Origin: Acidobacteriaceae bacterium
Lineage (GTDB): Bacteria > Acidobacteriota > Terriglobia > Terriglobales > Acidobacteriaceae
Assembly (NCBI GenBank): GCA_035944135.1
Contig: DASZBM010000006.1
Coordinates: 87,510-151,509, forward strand
Length of the DNA: 64,000 bases
Direction of reading: 5' to 3'
Positions 23,636-62,549 of the stretch are shown piece after piece. How positions within the stretch are numbered: the stretch's first letter is position 1; every line of letters starts with the position of its first letter. The notes beneath the pieces were generated by a model. The model had not been told where the DNA came from and made no database searches. It saw only the letters and a list, made by a program, of their open reading frames with translations. A program made the translations under genes and the position numbers.

Positions 23636-24181
23636 TCAAACATGCCACTCGGGAGGAAGCGTCGCGCGCAGTTCCCTGCGCCGTGCCACCTCACCGCTGC
23701 GCATCTCGCGCCTGCGGCCCGCATCCTCGAACCGTCGCTTCTGATGCTCGGTCTCCGCGATCACCTGCGGCACCTCGATGCGGTTGCCGCTCGCGTCGAC
23801 CGCAACGAACGTCAGATACGCCGAAGCCACCTGCCGGAAGCCGCCTCTACGAACGTCCTCCACCATCGCTTTGACGCCGACCTCCATGGAGGTGCGAAAG
23901 GCACGGTTCACACTCGATTTGAGGATGAGCAGGTCGCCAACCTTCACCGGCGCCACAAAATCCAGGTGGTCCATCGAAGCTGTGACCGTGTACGCCCGCG
24001 CGTGCCGGCTCGCGGCCATCGCGCCAACCAGGTCGATGAACTGCATCAGCCGCCCGCCGAAGAGGTTCCCGATTGCGTTCGCGTCATTCGGAAAGATAAT
24101 CTCGCTGCGTTCGGACTGGGACTCGGAGACCGGCCGCGCGGCCACACCTTCGCTCATCCTGCTTGCCATACCTCCGCTCAA
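23636..24181 (-). CDS. Acyl-CoA thioesterase (hotdog fold, YciA-like)
   Basis: 181 aa. IFPNDANAIGNLFGGRLMQFIDLVGAMAA...VTASMDHLDFVAPVKVGDLL. Exact start ambiguous (TTG 24181, or the internal ATGs in MASRMSEG). Confidence 0.85.
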   Translation of the reverse strand: MSGGMASRMSEGVAARPVSESQSERSEIIFPNDANAIGNLFGGRLMQFIDLVGAMAASRHARAYTVTASMDHLDFVAPVKVGDLLILKSSVNRAFRTSMEVGVKAMVEDVRRGGFRQVASAYLTFVAVDASGNRIEVPQVIAETEHQKRRFEDAGRRREMRSGEVARRRELRATLPPEWHV

Positions 24182-56813: not shown

Positions 56814-57515
56814 TTAAGCCCGCTCGCTGAAGGTATGGATGCCGCACTCAAGCTTTCTGCCGCCCCATCGACCACTGCGAGGATCCGCTCCAGCAGCAGG
56901 CCGCGCGGTGCATGGCTCGCATCCGATGCTCGAATAACCTTCATCGTAGAGCGAGAGCCGCGGAATGTCATGCTCTCTTGCGTAGGCCTCGACGCGATCC
57001 CAGGTCCAGTCGGCAAGGATACTGATTTTCTTCATCTGTTTTCCACTGGGCAGGCGATGATCCTCAGTTTTCTTCAGGTTGGCACGGGTTGGTGATTGTT
57101 CGCGACGTAGACCCGTAAACCACCACGCGTATGGTTCGAGTGAGCGCATCAGGGGCTCTACTTTCCGGATCTGGCAGCAATGCGTGGGATTGATTACGTG
57201 CAGCAAACCGAACTGCGCTTCGTGCTGCGCGATTGTGTTGGACGGGACGGCGTTGATGAGGTTCAGTTTCCAGTCATGAACGAGGCGATCACGATATTCG
57301 AGGAGAGCGGCAAAGTGATAGCCGGTTTCGAGAAAGATCACGGGAACGTCGGGCAGATGCTGACGAAGTAGATGGAGAACCACCATGTCCTCAGTCTGAA
57401 AGCTGCTTGTAAGGCAGACGTCGCGGCCGCCGGACGCTCGAACGGCTTCATCAGCGAGTTGAGCCGCAGTTAATTGTTCCGTGTCCACAGCTGGATTCAA
57501 TACCAGGTTGCTCAT
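56814..57515 (-). CDS. cysH: Assimilatory adenylyl-sulfate / phosphoadenylyl-sulfate reductase; its Cys pattern suggests the APS-reductase type
   Basis: 233 aa. PAPS_reduct fold with ETGYHF. CC pair (THCCQIRKVEPL) plus SIGCEPCT and C-terminal ECGIH. CC...CxxC is the Fe-S signature of APS reductases. Confidence 0.9.
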   Translation of the reverse strand: MSNLVLNPAVDTEQLTAAQLADEAVRASGGRDVCLTSSFQTEDMVVLHLLRQHLPDVPVIFLETGYHFAALLEYRDRLVHDWKLNLINAVPSNTIAQHEAQFGLLHVINPTHCCQIRKVEPLMRSLEPYAWWFTGLRREQSPTRANLKKTEDHRLPSGKQMKKISILADWTWDRVEAYAREHDIPRLSLYDEGYSSIGCEPCTARPAAGADPRSGRWGGRKLECGIHTFSERA

Positions 57516-59173
57516 GGCCGCTCCGTAAGCCAGTTTTCAAGATGCTGTTCATTGTCGATCAACGCATCGCCGACAATATCTCTGATGGCCTCAAGGGTGT
57601 CCGGTTTCAGGTCTTCGCGCGCAGTGAGCGCGGCGACTTGCGCGAGTTGGAGCGCTCGCGCTACGGCTGGAAGCGATGACTCTGGAATGAGAGGATCGTC
57701 GATATCGACTGCGAGTTTGTGCGTTTCCGAAAATCCATTCAAGACGCGCTCCAGCAACTCGTGGTCATTACGCAACCAGATGAATGCGGGGTTCGCTGTC
57801 GAGGGTTTCTCCGGTGTGGCAATGTCGACAGAGGCGGAGATCATGCCTGCCGCGACCGTCGCGTTCGCCAGAGGATCCATCAGGATGAACGAACCGGTCG
57901 AGCGGCTGTCTTCGTAGTTGTCGAAGAAGAGAGGCAAATTCGTCTCGATTTCGACTTCCGCAATGTCGTTCATCTGTAGCTTCGAGGCAGAACGATGCTC
58001 GGCAGTCACAACATCGACCCGATACATGATCGAGCGTACCGTCGCACGCACAACACGCGTCGTGTGCTTGAGCAGATAACTCTGACCGGCGATGATGGGC
58101 TGTTCATGCATCCAGACGAGGCTTGCGCGGAATACATTGCTTTTCGCCGGAGGCTCGGCATCTCCATCGGCGAGCATCTCTCCACGGCTGAGATCGATCT
58201 CGTCTTCCAGCGTCAAGGTGACGCTCTGCCCTGCTCGCGCCTGCTTGAGTTCGCCATCGTACGTCACGATGCTGCTGACGCGAGTTGTTCGGCCGCTCGG
58301 TAGCGCGCGAACTATTTGGCCGACGCGAAGCTCGCCGCGTTCTACGCGGCCGGCGAAGCCGCGAAATTCGGCGTCGGGCCGCACCACGAGTTGCACCGGG
58401 AAGCGAAGCGGCTCAGCGGCTGCCGGGACGATCTGGAGCGGTACAGTTTCGAGGTACTCGAGTAGCGTAGGCCCGCTATACCAACTCATTGCGGTCGAGG
58501 GTTCGACAACGTTATCGCCGGCCAGCGCGCTAACTGGAATCAATTCGACGCTGCCCAGCTGCAACTTGCTGGCCAGATCGAGATATTCGGTTCGGATCTG
58601 TTCGAACACTCTCTCGTCATAACCGACCAGATCCATCTTGTTGACAGCAGCTACGACGTGCGGGATGCGCAAAAGACTGGCGATGTAGGTGTGCCGACGC
58701 GTTTGCGGAAGCAGCGACCCAGCCTTGGCGAAGGCCTTTGCATCGATGAGCACAATCGCGACGTCGGCCGTCGATGCTCCCGTGGCCATGTTGCGCGTGT
58801 ACTGCTCGTGACCGGGCGTGTCGGCGATGATGAACTTTCGCTTTGCTGTCGAAAAGTAGCGGTAAGCAACGTCGATCGTAATTCCCTGCTCGCGCTCAGC
58901 GCGCAGACCGTCGGTCAACAGCGAAAGATCGAGCTCACCGCCGGAACGGTTTACGCGACTCGCGCGGATCGAGGCGAGCTGATCCTCGTAGACGCTTCTG
59001 GTGTCATGCAGCAGCCGGCCGATCAGCGTGCTCTTTCCATCGTCGACGCTGCCAGCCGTTGTGAAGCGAAGCATCTCCTGATCGAGATGGCGGTCGAGGA
59101 AGGAGCGAAACGCCTGTTCACGCGCAAGCTCTGATCGGGAGGCATGCATCTGCGTATTGTCACTCGTGATCAT
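57512..59173 (-). CDS. cysN: Sulfate adenylyltransferase subunit 1 (GTPase) with extended C-terminal tail
   Basis: 553 aa. LRFTTAGSVDDGKSTLIGRLL, DTPGHEQY, NKMD. A 108-aa tail follows the conserved ..TVAAGMI. ATGA overlap with cysH. Confidence 0.93.
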   Translation of the reverse strand: MITSDNTQMHASRSELAREQAFRSFLDRHLDQEMLRFTTAGSVDDGKSTLIGRLLHDTRSVYEDQLASIRASRVNRSGGELDLSLLTDGLRAEREQGITIDVAYRYFSTAKRKFIIADTPGHEQYTRNMATGASTADVAIVLIDAKAFAKAGSLLPQTRRHTYIASLLRIPHVVAAVNKMDLVGYDERVFEQIRTEYLDLASKLQLGSVELIPVSALAGDNVVEPSTAMSWYSGPTLLEYLETVPLQIVPAAAEPLRFPVQLVVRPDAEFRGFAGRVERGELRVGQIVRALPSGRTTRVSSIVTYDGELKQARAGQSVTLTLEDEIDLSRGEMLADGDAEPPAKSNVFRASLVWMHEQPIIAGQSYLLKHTTRVVRATVRSIMYRVDVVTAEHRSASKLQMNDIAEVEIETNLPLFFDNYEDSRSTGSFILMDPLANATVAAGMISASVDIATPEKPSTANPAFIWLRNDHELLERVLNGFSETHKLAVDIDDPLIPESSLPAVARALQLAQVAALTAREDLKPDTLEAIRDIVGDALIDNEQHLENWLTERP

Positions 59174-60120
59174 CAGAAGTATCCCTCTCTCTTCTTCAAC
59201 TCCATGGACCCTTCTTCGTCGTGGTCGATCGCGCGATTTTCGCGCTCGCTGCGACGGAATCCGATAAGTTCCTCGATGATCTTGGGCAGCGTGTCGGCTT
59301 CACTGCGGATTGCTCCGGTGCAAGGCGAGCAGCCCAGCGATCGCATCCGGACCTTCATCTTTTCCGGACGTTCATGTGGCAGCAGGCGTGTCGTTTCATC
59401 GACGAGCGTCAGTGTTCCTGCGCGATTCACAACCAACCGCTCCTCGGCGAAGTACAGCGGCACGATCGGGATTTGCTCGGCATAGAGATAGAGCCAGATG
59501 TCGAGTTCCGTCCAGTTCGACAGCGGAAACACGCGGATCGATTCGCCTTTACGAAGCCGCGAGTTGTAAAGGCTCCAGAGTTCCGGACGCTGGTTTTTGG
59601 GATCCCATTGGCCATGCGCATCGCGAAAGCTGTAGACGCGCTCCTTGGCGCGACTCTTTTCCTCGTCTCGACGCGCTCCGCCGAACGCCGCGTCGAACCC
59701 GCCCGCTTCGAGCGCATCAAGCAGCGATCGTGTCTTTAGCGCGCCGCAGCAGTTCTGCGTGCCCAGGGTCCACGGACTTGCTCCGGCAGCGAGGGCGTGT
59801 TCATTGCGGTGGACGATGAGTTCAGCGCCAATCTCGCGCACATAGGAATCTCGGAACGCGATCATCTCGGAAAACTTGTAGCTGGTGTCCACATGCAGAA
59901 GTGGAAACGGAATCCTGCCCGGGTAGAAGGCCTTCTGCGCCAGCCGCAGCATCACGCTGGAATCTTTGCCAATGGAATAGAGCATCACCGGGCGGGCGAA
60001 CTCCGCGACTGCCTCACGCATGATGTAGAGGCTTTCGGCTTCCAACGTCTGCAGATGGTTCAATCTGCTGCGGTGAAGTTGGTCAATCGCAGACGCGGTT
60101 TCGTTGACAGTGGCAGGCAT
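59173..60120 (-). CDS. cysD: Sulfate adenylyltransferase subunit 2
   Basis: Start ATG at 60120, preceded by GGAGG (60130-60126). [32 protein letters not shown].. A 1-nt stop/start overlap with cysN. Confidence 0.93.
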
Positions 60121-60257
60121 TGAGGCCTCCGGAAAAGAGATGGATGTGAAGCAACTGGAAGAAATCTCCAGCACGCACGTCCAGTTTTCTTGGTGGTTTC
60201 AGTGAAGGAGGGGCAGGAGACGCGCGAAGCATCGATCCGACCCGCACGGGGGCGTTA

Positions 60258-60308
60258 TCAGCAACAACAACAGCTGAAGCACTGGCAGCAGCAGTACACG
60301 CCCTTCAT
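60258..60308 (-). CDS. Candidate Cys-rich leader peptide (16 codons, 8 Cys) of the cysDNH operon
   Basis: ATG AAG GGC GTG TAC TGC TGC TGC CAG TGC TTC AGC TGT TGT TGT TGC TGA TAA, giving MKGVYCCCQCFSCCCC. Lies 137 nt upstream of the cysD ATG on the same strand. Too short for the supplied ORF track. Confidence 0.6.
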   Translation of the reverse strand: MKGVYCCCQCFSCCCC

Positions 60309-60485
60309 GGTGCTAGTGTACGGTCCGCTCGGGTGATACTGCAACTACACCCCCGTTGCACAACTGTCTACATCGACAGAGGTTTGTGGAACTTGTCGTG
60401 CAAAGCCAGAATGGCTGCAGTACATTGCCCGGAGAGTTCCTGCCGTGCTTTGCCGCTCGTGTCTCGAGCATCAAGGAGTCGCCGC

Positions 60486-62549
60486 ATGTTCGCATTCCGC
60501 CAAAGGCTGATTGCGCATCTCGCAATCGCCGCCAGCCTTCTCGGCGCGAGCGCGAACATGAGCGCGCAGGCCAGCAAGAGCGCCACGGAATATCCGGACT
60601 CGCGCGTCGACGTCTACGGCGGCTACGGGTTTTTCCATCCGATCAACAGCGGCGTCGGATCCAAACAGTATTTCGACGTGAACAACGCCAACGGCACGGT
60701 AAGCGTCACGGGCTACTTCAATCGTTACATTGGCGTCGCGACAGAAGCTGGATATTTCTCTGGCGTTCGCGAACATGCGGTCTACAACCCCAACTGCGTG
60801 GGCGAGGGCTGCTCGCAACTCGTTTACACCGCAGAAGCTGGTCCGGTGTTTCGTGTGCCCTTGGGTCCATGGATCCCGTTTGTCCATGCTCTGGGCGGCG
60901 GCGAGCGTTACAACGGGCCGGTCAATCAACCATTGACCTGGGGATGGGGAGTATCAGGCGGTGGCGGGCTCGACTATACGGCTCCGTTCTTCCATGACCA
61001 TCTCGCGGTTCGGATTATTCAGGCGGACTGGCAATACTCCCAGGTTGTCTACGGTCCGCTGGTCTTACCCGAGGCCGTCAAAGGCGGCTTCGGAGAAATC
61101 GATGCACTGAAGCTCTCGGGCGGTCTGGTCGTGAAACTGGGCGAGGTCACTGCGGCGAAGGCGCTCGACGTAGGTTGCAAGGCTGAGCCGGCAGTTGGTT
61201 ATCCCGGAGATGTGATTACTGTCACTGCAGCGTCCATCAACTTCGATGCGAAGCGGCCCGCGGCTTACACGTGGAAGACCAACGGCGGCAAGCTGAAACC
61301 CGACCAAGCGCAGGCGACGATCGATACAACCGGACTTGCGCCGGGCGAGTACGAGGTCAGCGCGCACGTCGTTCAGGGCATGAAGGCGCGGCAGCAGGCC
61401 TCATGCACCACGCCGTTCACCATCAAGCCGTTCGAACCGCCGACACTGACCTGCTCCGCGACTCCATCAAGCGCGACGGCAGGAACGACTATCGACATCA
61501 GCACGACTGGAACCAGTCCACAGAATCGTCCGCTCACCTATTCGTACAGCGCGAGTGCCGGCCAGATCACTGCGACCGGCCCGACAGCGAAGCTCTCGAC
61601 CGCCGGACTTCAGGCAACAACAATTACGGTCACGTGTAACGTCGTGGACGATCTTGGCCAGACCGCGCAGTCGAACACGCAGGTAACTCTCACCACGCCG
61701 CCGACGCCGACAGTTGCGGAGACGCAGGATCTCTGCCACATCACCTTCGAACGCGATCACCGCCGTCCGGAACGCGTCGATAATGAGGCGAAGGGCTGTC
61801 TCGATGACATCGCGCTGACGATGCAGCAGCAATCGGGTGCGAAGCTCGTGATGGTCGGCAACTCTTCCGCCAACGAGCATCCGGAAGCAGGCGCAGAACG
61901 TGCACTGAACGCGCGACAGTATCTGGTGCAGGAGAAAGGGATCGACAGCTCGCGCATTGAGCTTCGCACGGGCTCGATGCCGGGACGGTTCGTCACCAAC
62001 ACGCTCGTGCCCCCCGGAGCACACTTCGACGGCTCGAACTCGCAGACTTTCGACGAAAGTTCGATCGTTCGTCATGGACAGGCGTATGGTGTACCGGGCG
62101 CAAACAGACACTCGAATTCGCACTACCAGCCACGGCGAACCGCGCCTAGAAGATTTTCCGCACCACTGAAGGAGGCTCCGCGTGTGAATCCGCCTGCTGC
62201 TGGAAGGTCAGGGCCTTCGAGTTCCGCACCTTCGGGAACAGGCGCAAAACCGGGCACCCGCAAGAAGCCTTCGCCGGCGACTCCGATGCCTGCGCAACCC
62301 ACAGCCGGACAACGGACGACGGCGAAGCCTTCCCCTTCCACGCCGATGCAGACCAAAGCTGTCAAGCCGTCGCCTGCGACTCCGGTGCAAAGCAAGGCGG
62401 TGGAACCGAGCTCGGCGCAAACTAAGCCAAAAGCAACCACTACAGCTTTACAGATGAAGGGCAAACCATCACCTGCAACTTCGATACAGGCCAAGGGAAT
62501 TAAGCCTTCACCTGCAACTCCAATGCCGCAATCCTCGAAAAAGAGTTAG
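60486..62549 (+). CDS. Outer-membrane protein: N-terminal beta-barrel-like region, Ig-like repeats, OmpA-like domain, and a C-terminal Lys/Pro/Ser/Thr tandem-repeat tail
   Basis: Start ATG at 60486 after AAGGAGTCGCCGC. Signal peptide MFAFRQRLIAHLAIAASLLGASANMSAQA. OmpA-like segment ..LVMVGNSS...AERALNARQYLVQEKGIDSSRIELRTG (degenerate). Five KPSP(A/S)T(P/S) repeats at the C-terminus. Confidence 0.8.
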   Translation: MFAFRQRLIAHLAIAASLLGASANMSAQASKSATEYPDSRVDVYGGYGFFHPINSGVGSKQYFDVNNANGTVSVTGYFNRYIGVATEAGYFSGVREHAVYNPNCVGEGCSQLVYTAEAGPVFRVPLGPWIPFVHALGGGERYNGPVNQPLTWGWGVSGGGGLDYTAPFFHDHLAVRIIQADWQYSQVVYGPLVLPEAVKGGFGEIDALKLSGGLVVKLGEVTAAKALDVGCKAEPAVGYPGDVITVTAASINFDAKRPAAYTWKTNGGKLKPDQAQATIDTTGLAPGEYEVSAHVVQGMKARQQASCTTPFTIKPFEPPTLTCSATPSSATAGTTIDISTTGTSPQNRPLTYSYSASAGQITATGPTAKLSTAGLQATTITVTCNVVDDLGQTAQSNTQVTLTTPPTPTVAETQDLCHITFERDHRRPERVDNEAKGCLDDIALTMQQQSGAKLVMVGNSSANEHPEAGAERALNARQYLVQEKGIDSSRIELRTGSMPGRFVTNTLVPPGAHFDGSNSQTFDESSIVRHGQAYGVPGANRHSNSHYQPRRTAPRRFSAPLKEAPRVNPPAAGRSGPSSSAPSGTGAKPGTRKKPSPATPMPAQPTAGQRTTAKPSPSTPMQTKAVKPSPATPVQSKAVEPSSAQTKPKATTTALQMKGKPSPATSIQAKGIKPSPATPMPQSSKKS

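Follow-up and report, generated by a model that had tools for sequence, protein, structure and literature searches.

How might expression of the sulfur assimilation operon cysD-cysN-cysH be tied to the supply of cysteine (Cys) in an Acidobacteriaceae bacterium whose operon is preceded by a short, unusually Cys-rich open reading frame (ORF)? We analyzed a stretch of 64,000 nucleotides (nt) from this genome (GenBank assembly GCA_035944135.1, contig DASZBM010000006.1, positions 87,510 to 151,509; the whole stretch is hereafter called the window, and positions are counted from its first letter). An initial annotation had read the ORF, which lies upstream of cysD on the minus strand, as a candidate Cys-sensing leader peptide. 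That core reading is supported by the conservation of a Cys-rich ORF before cysD in related genomes, and we conclude that the 16-codon ORF is very probably a Cys-sensing regulatory leader peptide for cysD-cysN-cysH.

A Cys-rich leader ORF is conserved upstream of cysD

The leader ORF (positions 60258 to 60308, minus strand) encodes MKGVYCCCQCFSCCCC and ends with a TGA stop codon (60260 to 60258), followed by a second stop, TAA (60257 to 60255). From the ATG at 60308, its codons read ATG AAG GGC GTG TAC TGC TGC TGC CAG TGC TTC AGC TGT TGT TGT TGC. Rereading of the minus strand agreed with the initial annotation that 8 of the 16 codons specify Cys, in runs of three and four, and that the ORF lies 137 nt upstream of the cysD ATG at 60120. 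The internal Cys cluster, TGC TGC TGC CAG TGC (codons 6 to 8 and 10; 60279 to 60293, minus strand), occurs only in the window and in the related locus L001; the terminal run, TGT TGT TGT TGC (60261 to 60272, minus strand), lies directly 5′ of the stop codon and comprises the conserved, putative sensing codons. Among the 667 ATG-started ORFs of 8 to 41 codons in the window, the leader ORF had a Cys fraction of 0.50, compared with 0.25 for the next best. The only run of at least four TGY codons (Y, pyrimidine) on either strand of the window was that at 60272 to 60261, and first-order Markov simulations gave an expectation of 0.2 such runs per window.

Relatives were found by a CysD search, which yielded 80 loci from the Acidobacteriaceae and other Terriglobia (CysD identity, 76 to 96%). 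A first screen, for CC, CCC, or CCCC in the encoded peptide, detected a Cys ORF in 60 of the 80 loci; a more lenient one added approximately 9, and a few dubious calls were removed. Conservation among relatives had been named as the check on the initial reading, and homologous Cys-rich ORFs were present in approximately 65 of the 80 Terriglobia loci, 58 to 180 nt upstream of cysD. Examples of the encoded peptides include MKGVYCCQCLSCCCCR (L001), MKGMPHSCWPLGCCCC (L002), MCIAGCCCPRPFGCC (L019), MHSSIQCACCCCRMLPCPCMRCCR (L064), MRRVLTDRCCCLL (L071, Terriglobus albidus), and MISRTMNPACCQMCCCICCTPSHSGVARCAG (L079). Cultured carriers are Granulicella mallensis (L021), T. albidus DSM 26559 (L071), and Edaphobacter aggregans DSM 19364 (L065). 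Comparison between clades shows only four constants: an ATG, a short length, Cys codons, and a location ahead of cysD. The non-Cys residues differ.

Within the clade of the window (18 sequences in the alignment, 11 members of which came from a pattern search of metagenome contigs), the terminal run contained three to five Cys codons in 18 of 18 members, and the middle of the ORF varied freely. The synonymous variation that the initial annotation had proposed to look for was present: TGT and TGC swap within the Cys run, and the length of the run shifts by in-frame indels of 3 nt. This interchange, together with the in-frame indels, points to selection at the level of codons. Another product of the metagenome search, L083, was discarded as a chance match.

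Promoter geometry predicts a leaderless transcript

As first described, the ORF is preceded by the arrangement TTGCAG (60344 to 60339)-N18-TACACT (60320 to 60315)-N6-ATG on the minus strand. TTGCAG (60339 to 60344) is a −35-like hexamer of an inferred promoter, and its TTGC is invariant in the window clade; TACACT (60315 to 60320), 6 nt upstream of the leader ATG, is a −10-like hexamer recognized by its comparative geometry. Of 60 loci, 49 have TAnnnT 6 to 8 nt before the in-frame leader ATG, compared with a frequency of 2.9% for all ATGs in these loci; TTGnnn precedes the hexamer by 17 to 18 nt in 39 of the 49. A Shine-Dalgarno (SD)-like motif was present before the ORF in only 1 of 49 loci, in keeping with the earlier observation that none precedes it in the window. 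The comparison of −10 geometry across loci favors the leaderless option raised in the initial annotation, and the transcript is predicted to begin at the A of the leader ATG or adjacent to it. In L006, a 1-nt insertion separates the −10 box from the ATG, which argues that the conserved sequence upstream of the ATG is promoter rather than coding sequence. A scan of positions 59900 to 60700 with a generic sigma-70 consensus gave no match, because TTGCAG and TACACT fall below its threshold, and it detected no promoter-like site between the ORF and cysD.

Taken as a signature, the −10 box, ATG, and short ORF with CC and at least three Cys codons occurred outside the cysD leader in three cases on both strands of the 80 loci; a stray match in L077 has no gene downstream. 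No other Cys or amino acid leader ORF with the same promoter geometry was found elsewhere in the window.

The promoter geometry also bears on a helix that had been suggested to enclose the whole ORF. This pairing of ACGGGGGUGU (60356 to 60347) with ACGCCCCCGU (60255 to 60246) is indeed complete in the window, with 10 of 10 pairs. It is not conserved, however: in most relatives 5 to 7 of the 10 pairs can form, and the anticipated covariation of flanking helices was not seen, the changes being uncompensated. The inferred start lies downstream of the 5′ arm, so the helix would not be transcribed. We therefore rejected it as a regulatory element.

Just upstream of the −35 hexamer and overlapping it, a block at 60339 to 60373 (minus strand, GATGTAGACAGTTGTGCAACGGGGGTGTAGTTGCAG) is near-invariant among all 19 clade sequences, to a greater degree than the leader ORF, and within it TGTAG...TTG occurs twice, approximately 25 nt apart. 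One possible reading of the block is an operator or second promoter, which would add control by a transcription factor to attenuation; alternatively, it may act for the divergent gene that starts at 60486.

Terminators follow the ORF in deep-branching homologues and are absent from the Acidobacteriaceae

In the five most distant loci (L076 to L080; labelled Ca. Acidoferrum, Acidiferrales, group 2, and others), the ORF is followed by a strong hairpin and then a U run. These terminator hairpins have energies of −15 to −25 kcal/mol (for example, CCCACCGCCGGAUGGAACCGGCAGGUGGGUUUUUUGUUUUU). The 5′ arm of the terminator has a complementary stretch within the ORF, immediately 3′ of the Cys cluster, in L076, L078, and L079, and the resulting antiterminator duplex (−16 to −24 kcal/mol) is better than 97 to 99% of shuffles. 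By their predicted RNA architecture, the terminator-bearing deep-branching homologues are classical attenuators, which suggests that the Cys ORF family as such is regulatory.

The window differs. No canonical terminator was detected between 59900 and 60700, as the initial annotation had found in its search for a GC hairpin plus U run, and no intrinsic terminator lies between the ORF and cysD in the window or in any Acidobacteriaceae homologue. Nor was a mutually exclusive antiterminator found 3′ of the regulatory codons in the window clade. More generally, terminator-like sites with a hairpin plus T run were about as frequent as in shuffled sequence (20 versus 17.5 and 13 versus 14; window positions 24001 to 64000, 40 kb), and canonical intrinsic terminators may be rare in the source genome.

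The leader RNA between stop codon and cysD is C-rich and structured

Leaders with and without terminators differ in composition and in the placement of their Cys codons. In terminator-less leaders the C/G ratio averaged approximately 1.6 (median, 1.47), with a median rank in the top 4% of same-length windows per locus, whereas the five terminator-bearing leaders had ratios of 0.95 to 1.33. Across 52 terminator-less loci, the enrichment in C and depletion in G set in at the stop codon and persist for approximately 70 nt, with a C fraction of 0.41 to 0.46 and a G fraction of 0.21 in the first 20 nt. Of 62 terminator-less leaders, 60 have their last Cys at most three residues from the stop (the permuted fraction averaged 0.66 and peaked at 0.85), and 33 have it as the very last codon; in terminator-bearing leaders, the distance is 2 to 12 residues. 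Together, the composition and the Cys-stop geometry fit a steric mechanism that acts on the RNA directly after the stop.

In the window, this region begins with a C-rich post-stop tract, CGCCCCCGUGC (60244 to 60254, minus strand), which would lie under a ribosome stalled on the last Cys codons and is a candidate for the 5′ part of a Rho-loading site. It is followed by hairpin P1 (60211 to 60243, minus strand), formed by GGGUCGGAUCGAUGC and GCGUCUCCUGCCC around the loop UUCGC and present in both the minimum free energy (MFE) and centroid folds. P1 begins a constant 13 to 14 nt after the stop in the window clade, just outside a terminating ribosome. In the alignment, 98.9% of its cells are paired, two pairs carry compensatory double changes, and the loop sequence is variable; 0 of 500 shuffles reached its covariation score. 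P1 interrupts the C-rich zone of the window. A C-rich, G-poor tract (60181 to 60222, minus strand; 17 C and 6 G in 42 nt) combines the 3′ arm of P1 with a single-stranded linker and is a candidate rut (Rho utilization) core or anti-SD sequence. The rut-like reading given to this tract in the initial annotation is compatible with the composition data.

A long interrupted hairpin, P2 (60135 to 60191, minus strand), ends 4 nt before the cysD SD, and its apical stem pairs 60172 to 60166 with 60160 to 60154. P2 folds independently in each clade member, and 83% of its cells are paired, compared with 33 to 46% in slid controls; its covariation is modest, with 12 of 500 shuffles reaching the score. 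Of the two mutually exclusive helices described earlier for this region, CUGGA/UCCAG is the apical stem of the conserved P2, and AACUGG/CCAGUU is lost in L089, L091, and L092. P2 was rejected as an intrinsic terminator, being followed by CUCUUUUCC and not by a U run. Two further pairings were also discarded. A 4-bp helix closing the ORF (GGGC of codons 2 to 3 with post-stop GCCC, from RNAalifold) showed no covariation, and changes in it only break pairs. Pairing of the Cys codons with an AGCAAC motif in the linker was dismissed because the motif occurs in about half of the clade and is absent from the window and L001; AGCAAC pairs instead with GUYGCU at the base of P2.

Proposed mechanism and alternative explanations

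The following proposal starts from what is established in silico: a conserved ORF with no terminator behind it, a recurrent promoter geometry, a leader of C-rich, G-poor composition, and hairpins P1 and P2. Transcription would start at or beside the A of the ATG, from TTGCAG-N18-TACACT-N6, and a 70S ribosome would load on the 5′ end. With ample Cys-tRNA, the ribosome would pass the four terminal Cys codons, terminate at UGA, and depart, leaving the 137-nt leader naked; Rho would then load on the C-rich leader and end transcription before or early in cysD. With scarce Cys-tRNA, the ribosome would stall on codons 13 to 16 (in the window also on codons 6 to 8 and 10), and its footprint would extend into the C-rich RNA from the stop codon onward. 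The stalled ribosome would thereby shield the 5′ part of the Rho-loading region, which consists of the post-stop tract, then P1, and then the C-rich linker. Such shielding would relieve premature Rho-dependent termination in a tna-like manner, with tRNA charging as the signal, and transcription of cysD would continue.

We infer translation of the ORF, stalling, and the involvement of Rho. We favor a steric effector because no intrinsic terminator and no alternative pairing of the ribosome-covered RNA was found. Rho is a possible effector, which we name with some reserve, and we tentatively favor the combined reading of a leaderless, Cys-tRNA-reporting leader peptide with a Rho-loading region shielded by the stalled ribosome, at a confidence that stops just short of even. 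Several observations weigh against this combined reading. The C/G ratios of 78-nt windows in the leader of the window itself (1.5 to 1.9) lie at approximately the 85th to 93rd percentile of the window and are unexceptional, and the MFE of the leader is ordinary (z = −0.6 and −0.2). At the last Cys codons, a stalled ribosome would cover only the first 10 to 12 nt after the stop and leave P1 and the linker exposed, so that shielding may be insufficient. The loci are phylogenetically related, and counts across them therefore overstate their independence. Finally, the C/U-rich RNA can also be read as an anti-SD sequence, the 3′ arm of P1 fitting the ribosome-binding site in L001, L003, and L007.

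This last point leads to translational attenuation as at Ms5788A of Mycobacterium smegmatis, in which a pyrimidine tract would block the cysD SD (GGAGG, 60126 to 60130, minus strand; invariant in the window clade) in the ribosome-free leader and a stalled ribosome would free it, with Rho polarity possibly following secondarily. We consider SD occlusion unlikely here, though it deserves to be taken seriously. It is the experimentally shown mechanism of the closest known system (10.1101/834739), and candidate tracts are available in the post-stop CGCCCCC, the GUCUCC of the P1 3′ arm, and the CCUCC of the linker. The complementarity between CCUCC (60211 to 60207) and GGAGG (60130 to 60126) noted in the initial annotation does exist; the specific anti-SD role suggested for it found no support in folding or shuffle tests. 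The P1 3′ arm, GUCUCCGG, can form 6 to 8 bp with CCGGAGGC, at −16 to −20 kcal/mol and better than shuffles in the three loci just named, and the match of the window itself is weak. In the leader of the window, the SD is predicted to be mostly paired (unpaired probability, approximately 0.05). Against occlusion, constraint folding of 15 clade leaders with a ribosome at the first Cys, at the last Cys, or at the stop produced no consistent change in SD accessibility, and the complementarity of the ribosome-covered RNA to the rest of the leader was no better than that of its own shuffles. Pairing of the 20 post-stop nt with the cysD ribosome-binding site likewise failed to exceed shuffles across 51 loci (−9.6 versus −10.3 kcal/mol) or the pairing of a mid-leader segment. 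The 3′ arm of P1 is locked in a stable, conserved hairpin for whose 5′ arm no competitor was found, and, as read from the alignment, N7 of the 3′ arm and its partner do not covary.

Two other explanations dispense with any switch in the leader. Erythromycin-stalled ribosomes on the ermC and ermA leaders protect the transcript from decay, and in the same way a ribosome parked at the leaderless 5′ end could block 5′-end-dependent decay and raise the half-life of cysDNH mRNA under Cys limitation. Such stabilization would suit a predicted leaderless transcript whose sensor occupies its very 5′ end and in which we found neither a terminator nor a ribosome-dependent structural switch, but it leaves unexplained the conserved C-rich composition, P1, P2, and why the Cys codons must abut the stop, and we regard it as improbable. 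It is least probable, to the point of being hard to credit, that the product of the ORF is itself functional, as a Cys-rich micropeptide (metal or redox active, for example), or that the TGY codons form an untranslated RNA or DNA motif, with no link to Cys supply. Some Granulicella homologues do keep a non-Cys core (RIARCPRQ) with only one to three Cys, and GCTGTTGTTGT is invariant in nucleotides within the window clade. The retention of so few features between clades speaks against this explanation, as do the codon-level selection indicated by TGT/TGC swaps and in-frame indels, the near absence of the signature elsewhere in the loci, the tie to the sulfur assimilation operon in approximately 65 genomes, and the coupling to terminator and antiterminator in deep lineages.

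Returning to the steric Rho design, the contrast between lineages raises the prospect of one leaderless Cys sensor with two effectors within a single class, in which deep Terriglobia would use a terminator and antiterminator and the Acidobacteriaceae would have swapped these for a terminator-less, purely steric design, their Cys codons having moved up to the stop so that a stalled ribosome covers the C-rich Rho-loading tract. Such a swap is conceivable but rather doubtful.

Genomic context of the operon and variant leaders in relatives

All three genes of the operon lie on the minus strand. cysD (59173 to 60120) encodes the sulfate adenylyltransferase small subunit (NCBIfam NF009214, 462 bits), cysN (57512 to 59173) the large GTPase subunit (NF003478, 618 bits; Pfam GTP_EFTU), and cysH (56814 to 57515) an adenosine phosphosulfate (APS)/phosphoadenosine phosphosulfate reductase (NF002537, 226 bits; PF01507). 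CysN has no APS-kinase (CysC) domain and extends approximately 100 residues past the C-terminal end of the CysN model, and cysC is absent from the operon, which fits direct reduction of APS by the cysH product. The cysD start codon (60118 to 60120) is ATG in the window and L001 and TTG in nearly all of the other clade members compared (L002 to L007 and L084 to L092) and in many Granulicella loci; in each case a strong GGAGG precedes it. The leader element occupies a divergent intergenic region of 365 nt. The plus-strand gene on its other side (60486 to 62546) encodes 687 amino acids, with a signal peptide-like N terminus and a long C terminus rich in Pro, Ser, Thr, and Lys that contains KPSPATP-like repeats; it had no Pfam or NCBIfam match. 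A search of positions 59500 to 61000 against Rfam gave no match with E < 1, the best matches being at chance level (E > 3).

Some relatives carry other leaders. A Granulicella subfamily (L009 to L011, L013 to L015, L017, L018, and L020), located approximately 190 to 230 nt upstream of cysD, shares the peptide core (L/Q)RI(A/T)RC(P/Q)(R/K/G)Q with only one to three Cys, a single one in L011 and L020. To judge by this core, the subfamily is constrained beyond its Cys codon count, at the level of the nascent peptide or of the RNA sequence. In L042, the Granulicella leader ORF seems to survive in decayed form: a region approximately 150 to 230 nt upstream of cysD aligns with the nucleotides of L057, with its Cys codons mutated and the stop changed from TAG to TGG. 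Seven loci (L028, L034, L035, L038, L044, L049, and L052) have no Cys ORF and carry a divergent tRNA-Pro(CGG) gene upstream of cysD. These share a leader motif 220 to 330 nt upstream of cysD, GAGTYTAGCAGAA ... GCGACNGATNGC ... ACATCTCATCCGTAGACTG, which could represent either a separate type of cysD leader, so far undescribed, or the ORF in decayed form. Rfam returned no match for the leaders of the relatives that lack the ORF.

Relation to known systems and significance

Leader-peptide attenuators of the classical kind include trpL, hisL, leuL, thrL, pheL, and ilvL. Brewer et al. 2021 (PMC8632094) reported an upstream ORF with two Cys and a terminator before cysS in Rhodobacterales. The leader ORF resembles the classical attenuators and this uORFC-8-2 (PMC8632094) in its enrichment in codons that specify the pathway's amino acid. 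The likeness to the classical attenuators goes further in the deep-branching homologues L076 to L080, which have their terminator/antiterminator architecture (the antiterminator in L076, L078, and L079). By contrast, no GC hairpin plus U run is present in the window or in any Acidobacteriaceae homologue, and the ORF is predicted to be leaderless instead of being led by an SD.

At tnaC-tnaAB of Escherichia coli, a ribosome arrested at the 3′ end of tnaC masks a Rho-loading site beside the stop codon. Free tryptophan is detected there by way of the nascent TnaC peptide, release at the stop is prevented, and the tna operon is catabolic and induced by excess. The leader proposed here would likewise retain a ribosome at the end of its ORF and have an adjoining candidate Rho-loading site and a long, terminator-less untranslated spacer. 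It would differ in its proposed signal, an empty A site at Cys codons, and in serving a biosynthetic operon induced by shortage.

Cys leader peptides as such are already known, in Actinobacteria and Rhodobacterales; the phylum Acidobacteriota is newly added, and our full-text literature searches found no description of a Cys leader peptide for it. Seliverstov et al. 2005 (PMC1262725) predicted Cys leader peptides in Actinobacteria, noted that terminators are missing, and proposed Rho for the terminator-less mycobacterial leaders by analogy with tna. Those leaders likewise have Cys-codon runs near the stop, no conserved terminator hairpin, and a pyrimidine-rich spacer; that work was purely computational, and its poly-Y motifs are not conserved, whereas the C-rich bias reported here extends over 52 loci and contrasts with terminator-bearing homologues.

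The closest parallel is with the mycobacterial leaderless polycysteine short ORFs, for which Canestrari et al. 2020 (10.1101/834739) reported Cys-responsive control at six M. smegmatis loci (Ms5788A and five others; also Rv2334A-cysK1-cysE). In both cases an unannotated, very short ORF with a leaderless 5′ end (predicted here) carries consecutive Cys codons at its 3′ end and lies upstream of and co-oriented with Cys metabolism genes, without an intrinsic terminator and with the same stalling logic at low Cys-tRNA (inferred here). The present ORFs belong to Acidobacteriota (Terriglobia) and have no sequence homology to the mycobacterial ones, and their leader contains two conserved hairpins and a C-rich tract. 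Their target is cysD-cysN-cysH; a term search of the mycobacterial report (10.1101/834739) found no mention of cysD, cysN, cysH, or sulfate. At Ms5788A, the Cys tract itself pairs with the SD region, a feature shown for that locus only (10.1101/834739), and no such pairing above chance was found here. As far as can be judged from sequence, the element shares the architecture of the mycobacterial class (leaderless, C-terminal Cys run, no terminator) and fails the SD-pairing feature of Ms5788A.

Gene regulation is almost unexplored in Acidobacteriota, a phylum that ranks among the most abundant in soil. The leader is a concrete candidate for a cis-regulatory element of sulfate assimilation that is conserved in cultured strains, and it belongs to a class of genes of 13 to 30 codons that annotation pipelines overlook. 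With it, sensing by leaderless polycysteine ORFs, known from Actinobacteria, would reach another phylum unrelated to them, and such a two-phylum spread would support leaderless short ORFs as a general route to attenuation. The natural variants with and without a terminator offer material for studying the evolution of the effector step in attenuators. If the proposed mechanism is true, the leader would be a Rho-dependent attenuator of a biosynthetic operon that senses tRNA charging, and the family would be a case of natural effector swapping in attenuators; the element might then belong to a broader Cys "ribulon" of Acidobacteriota.

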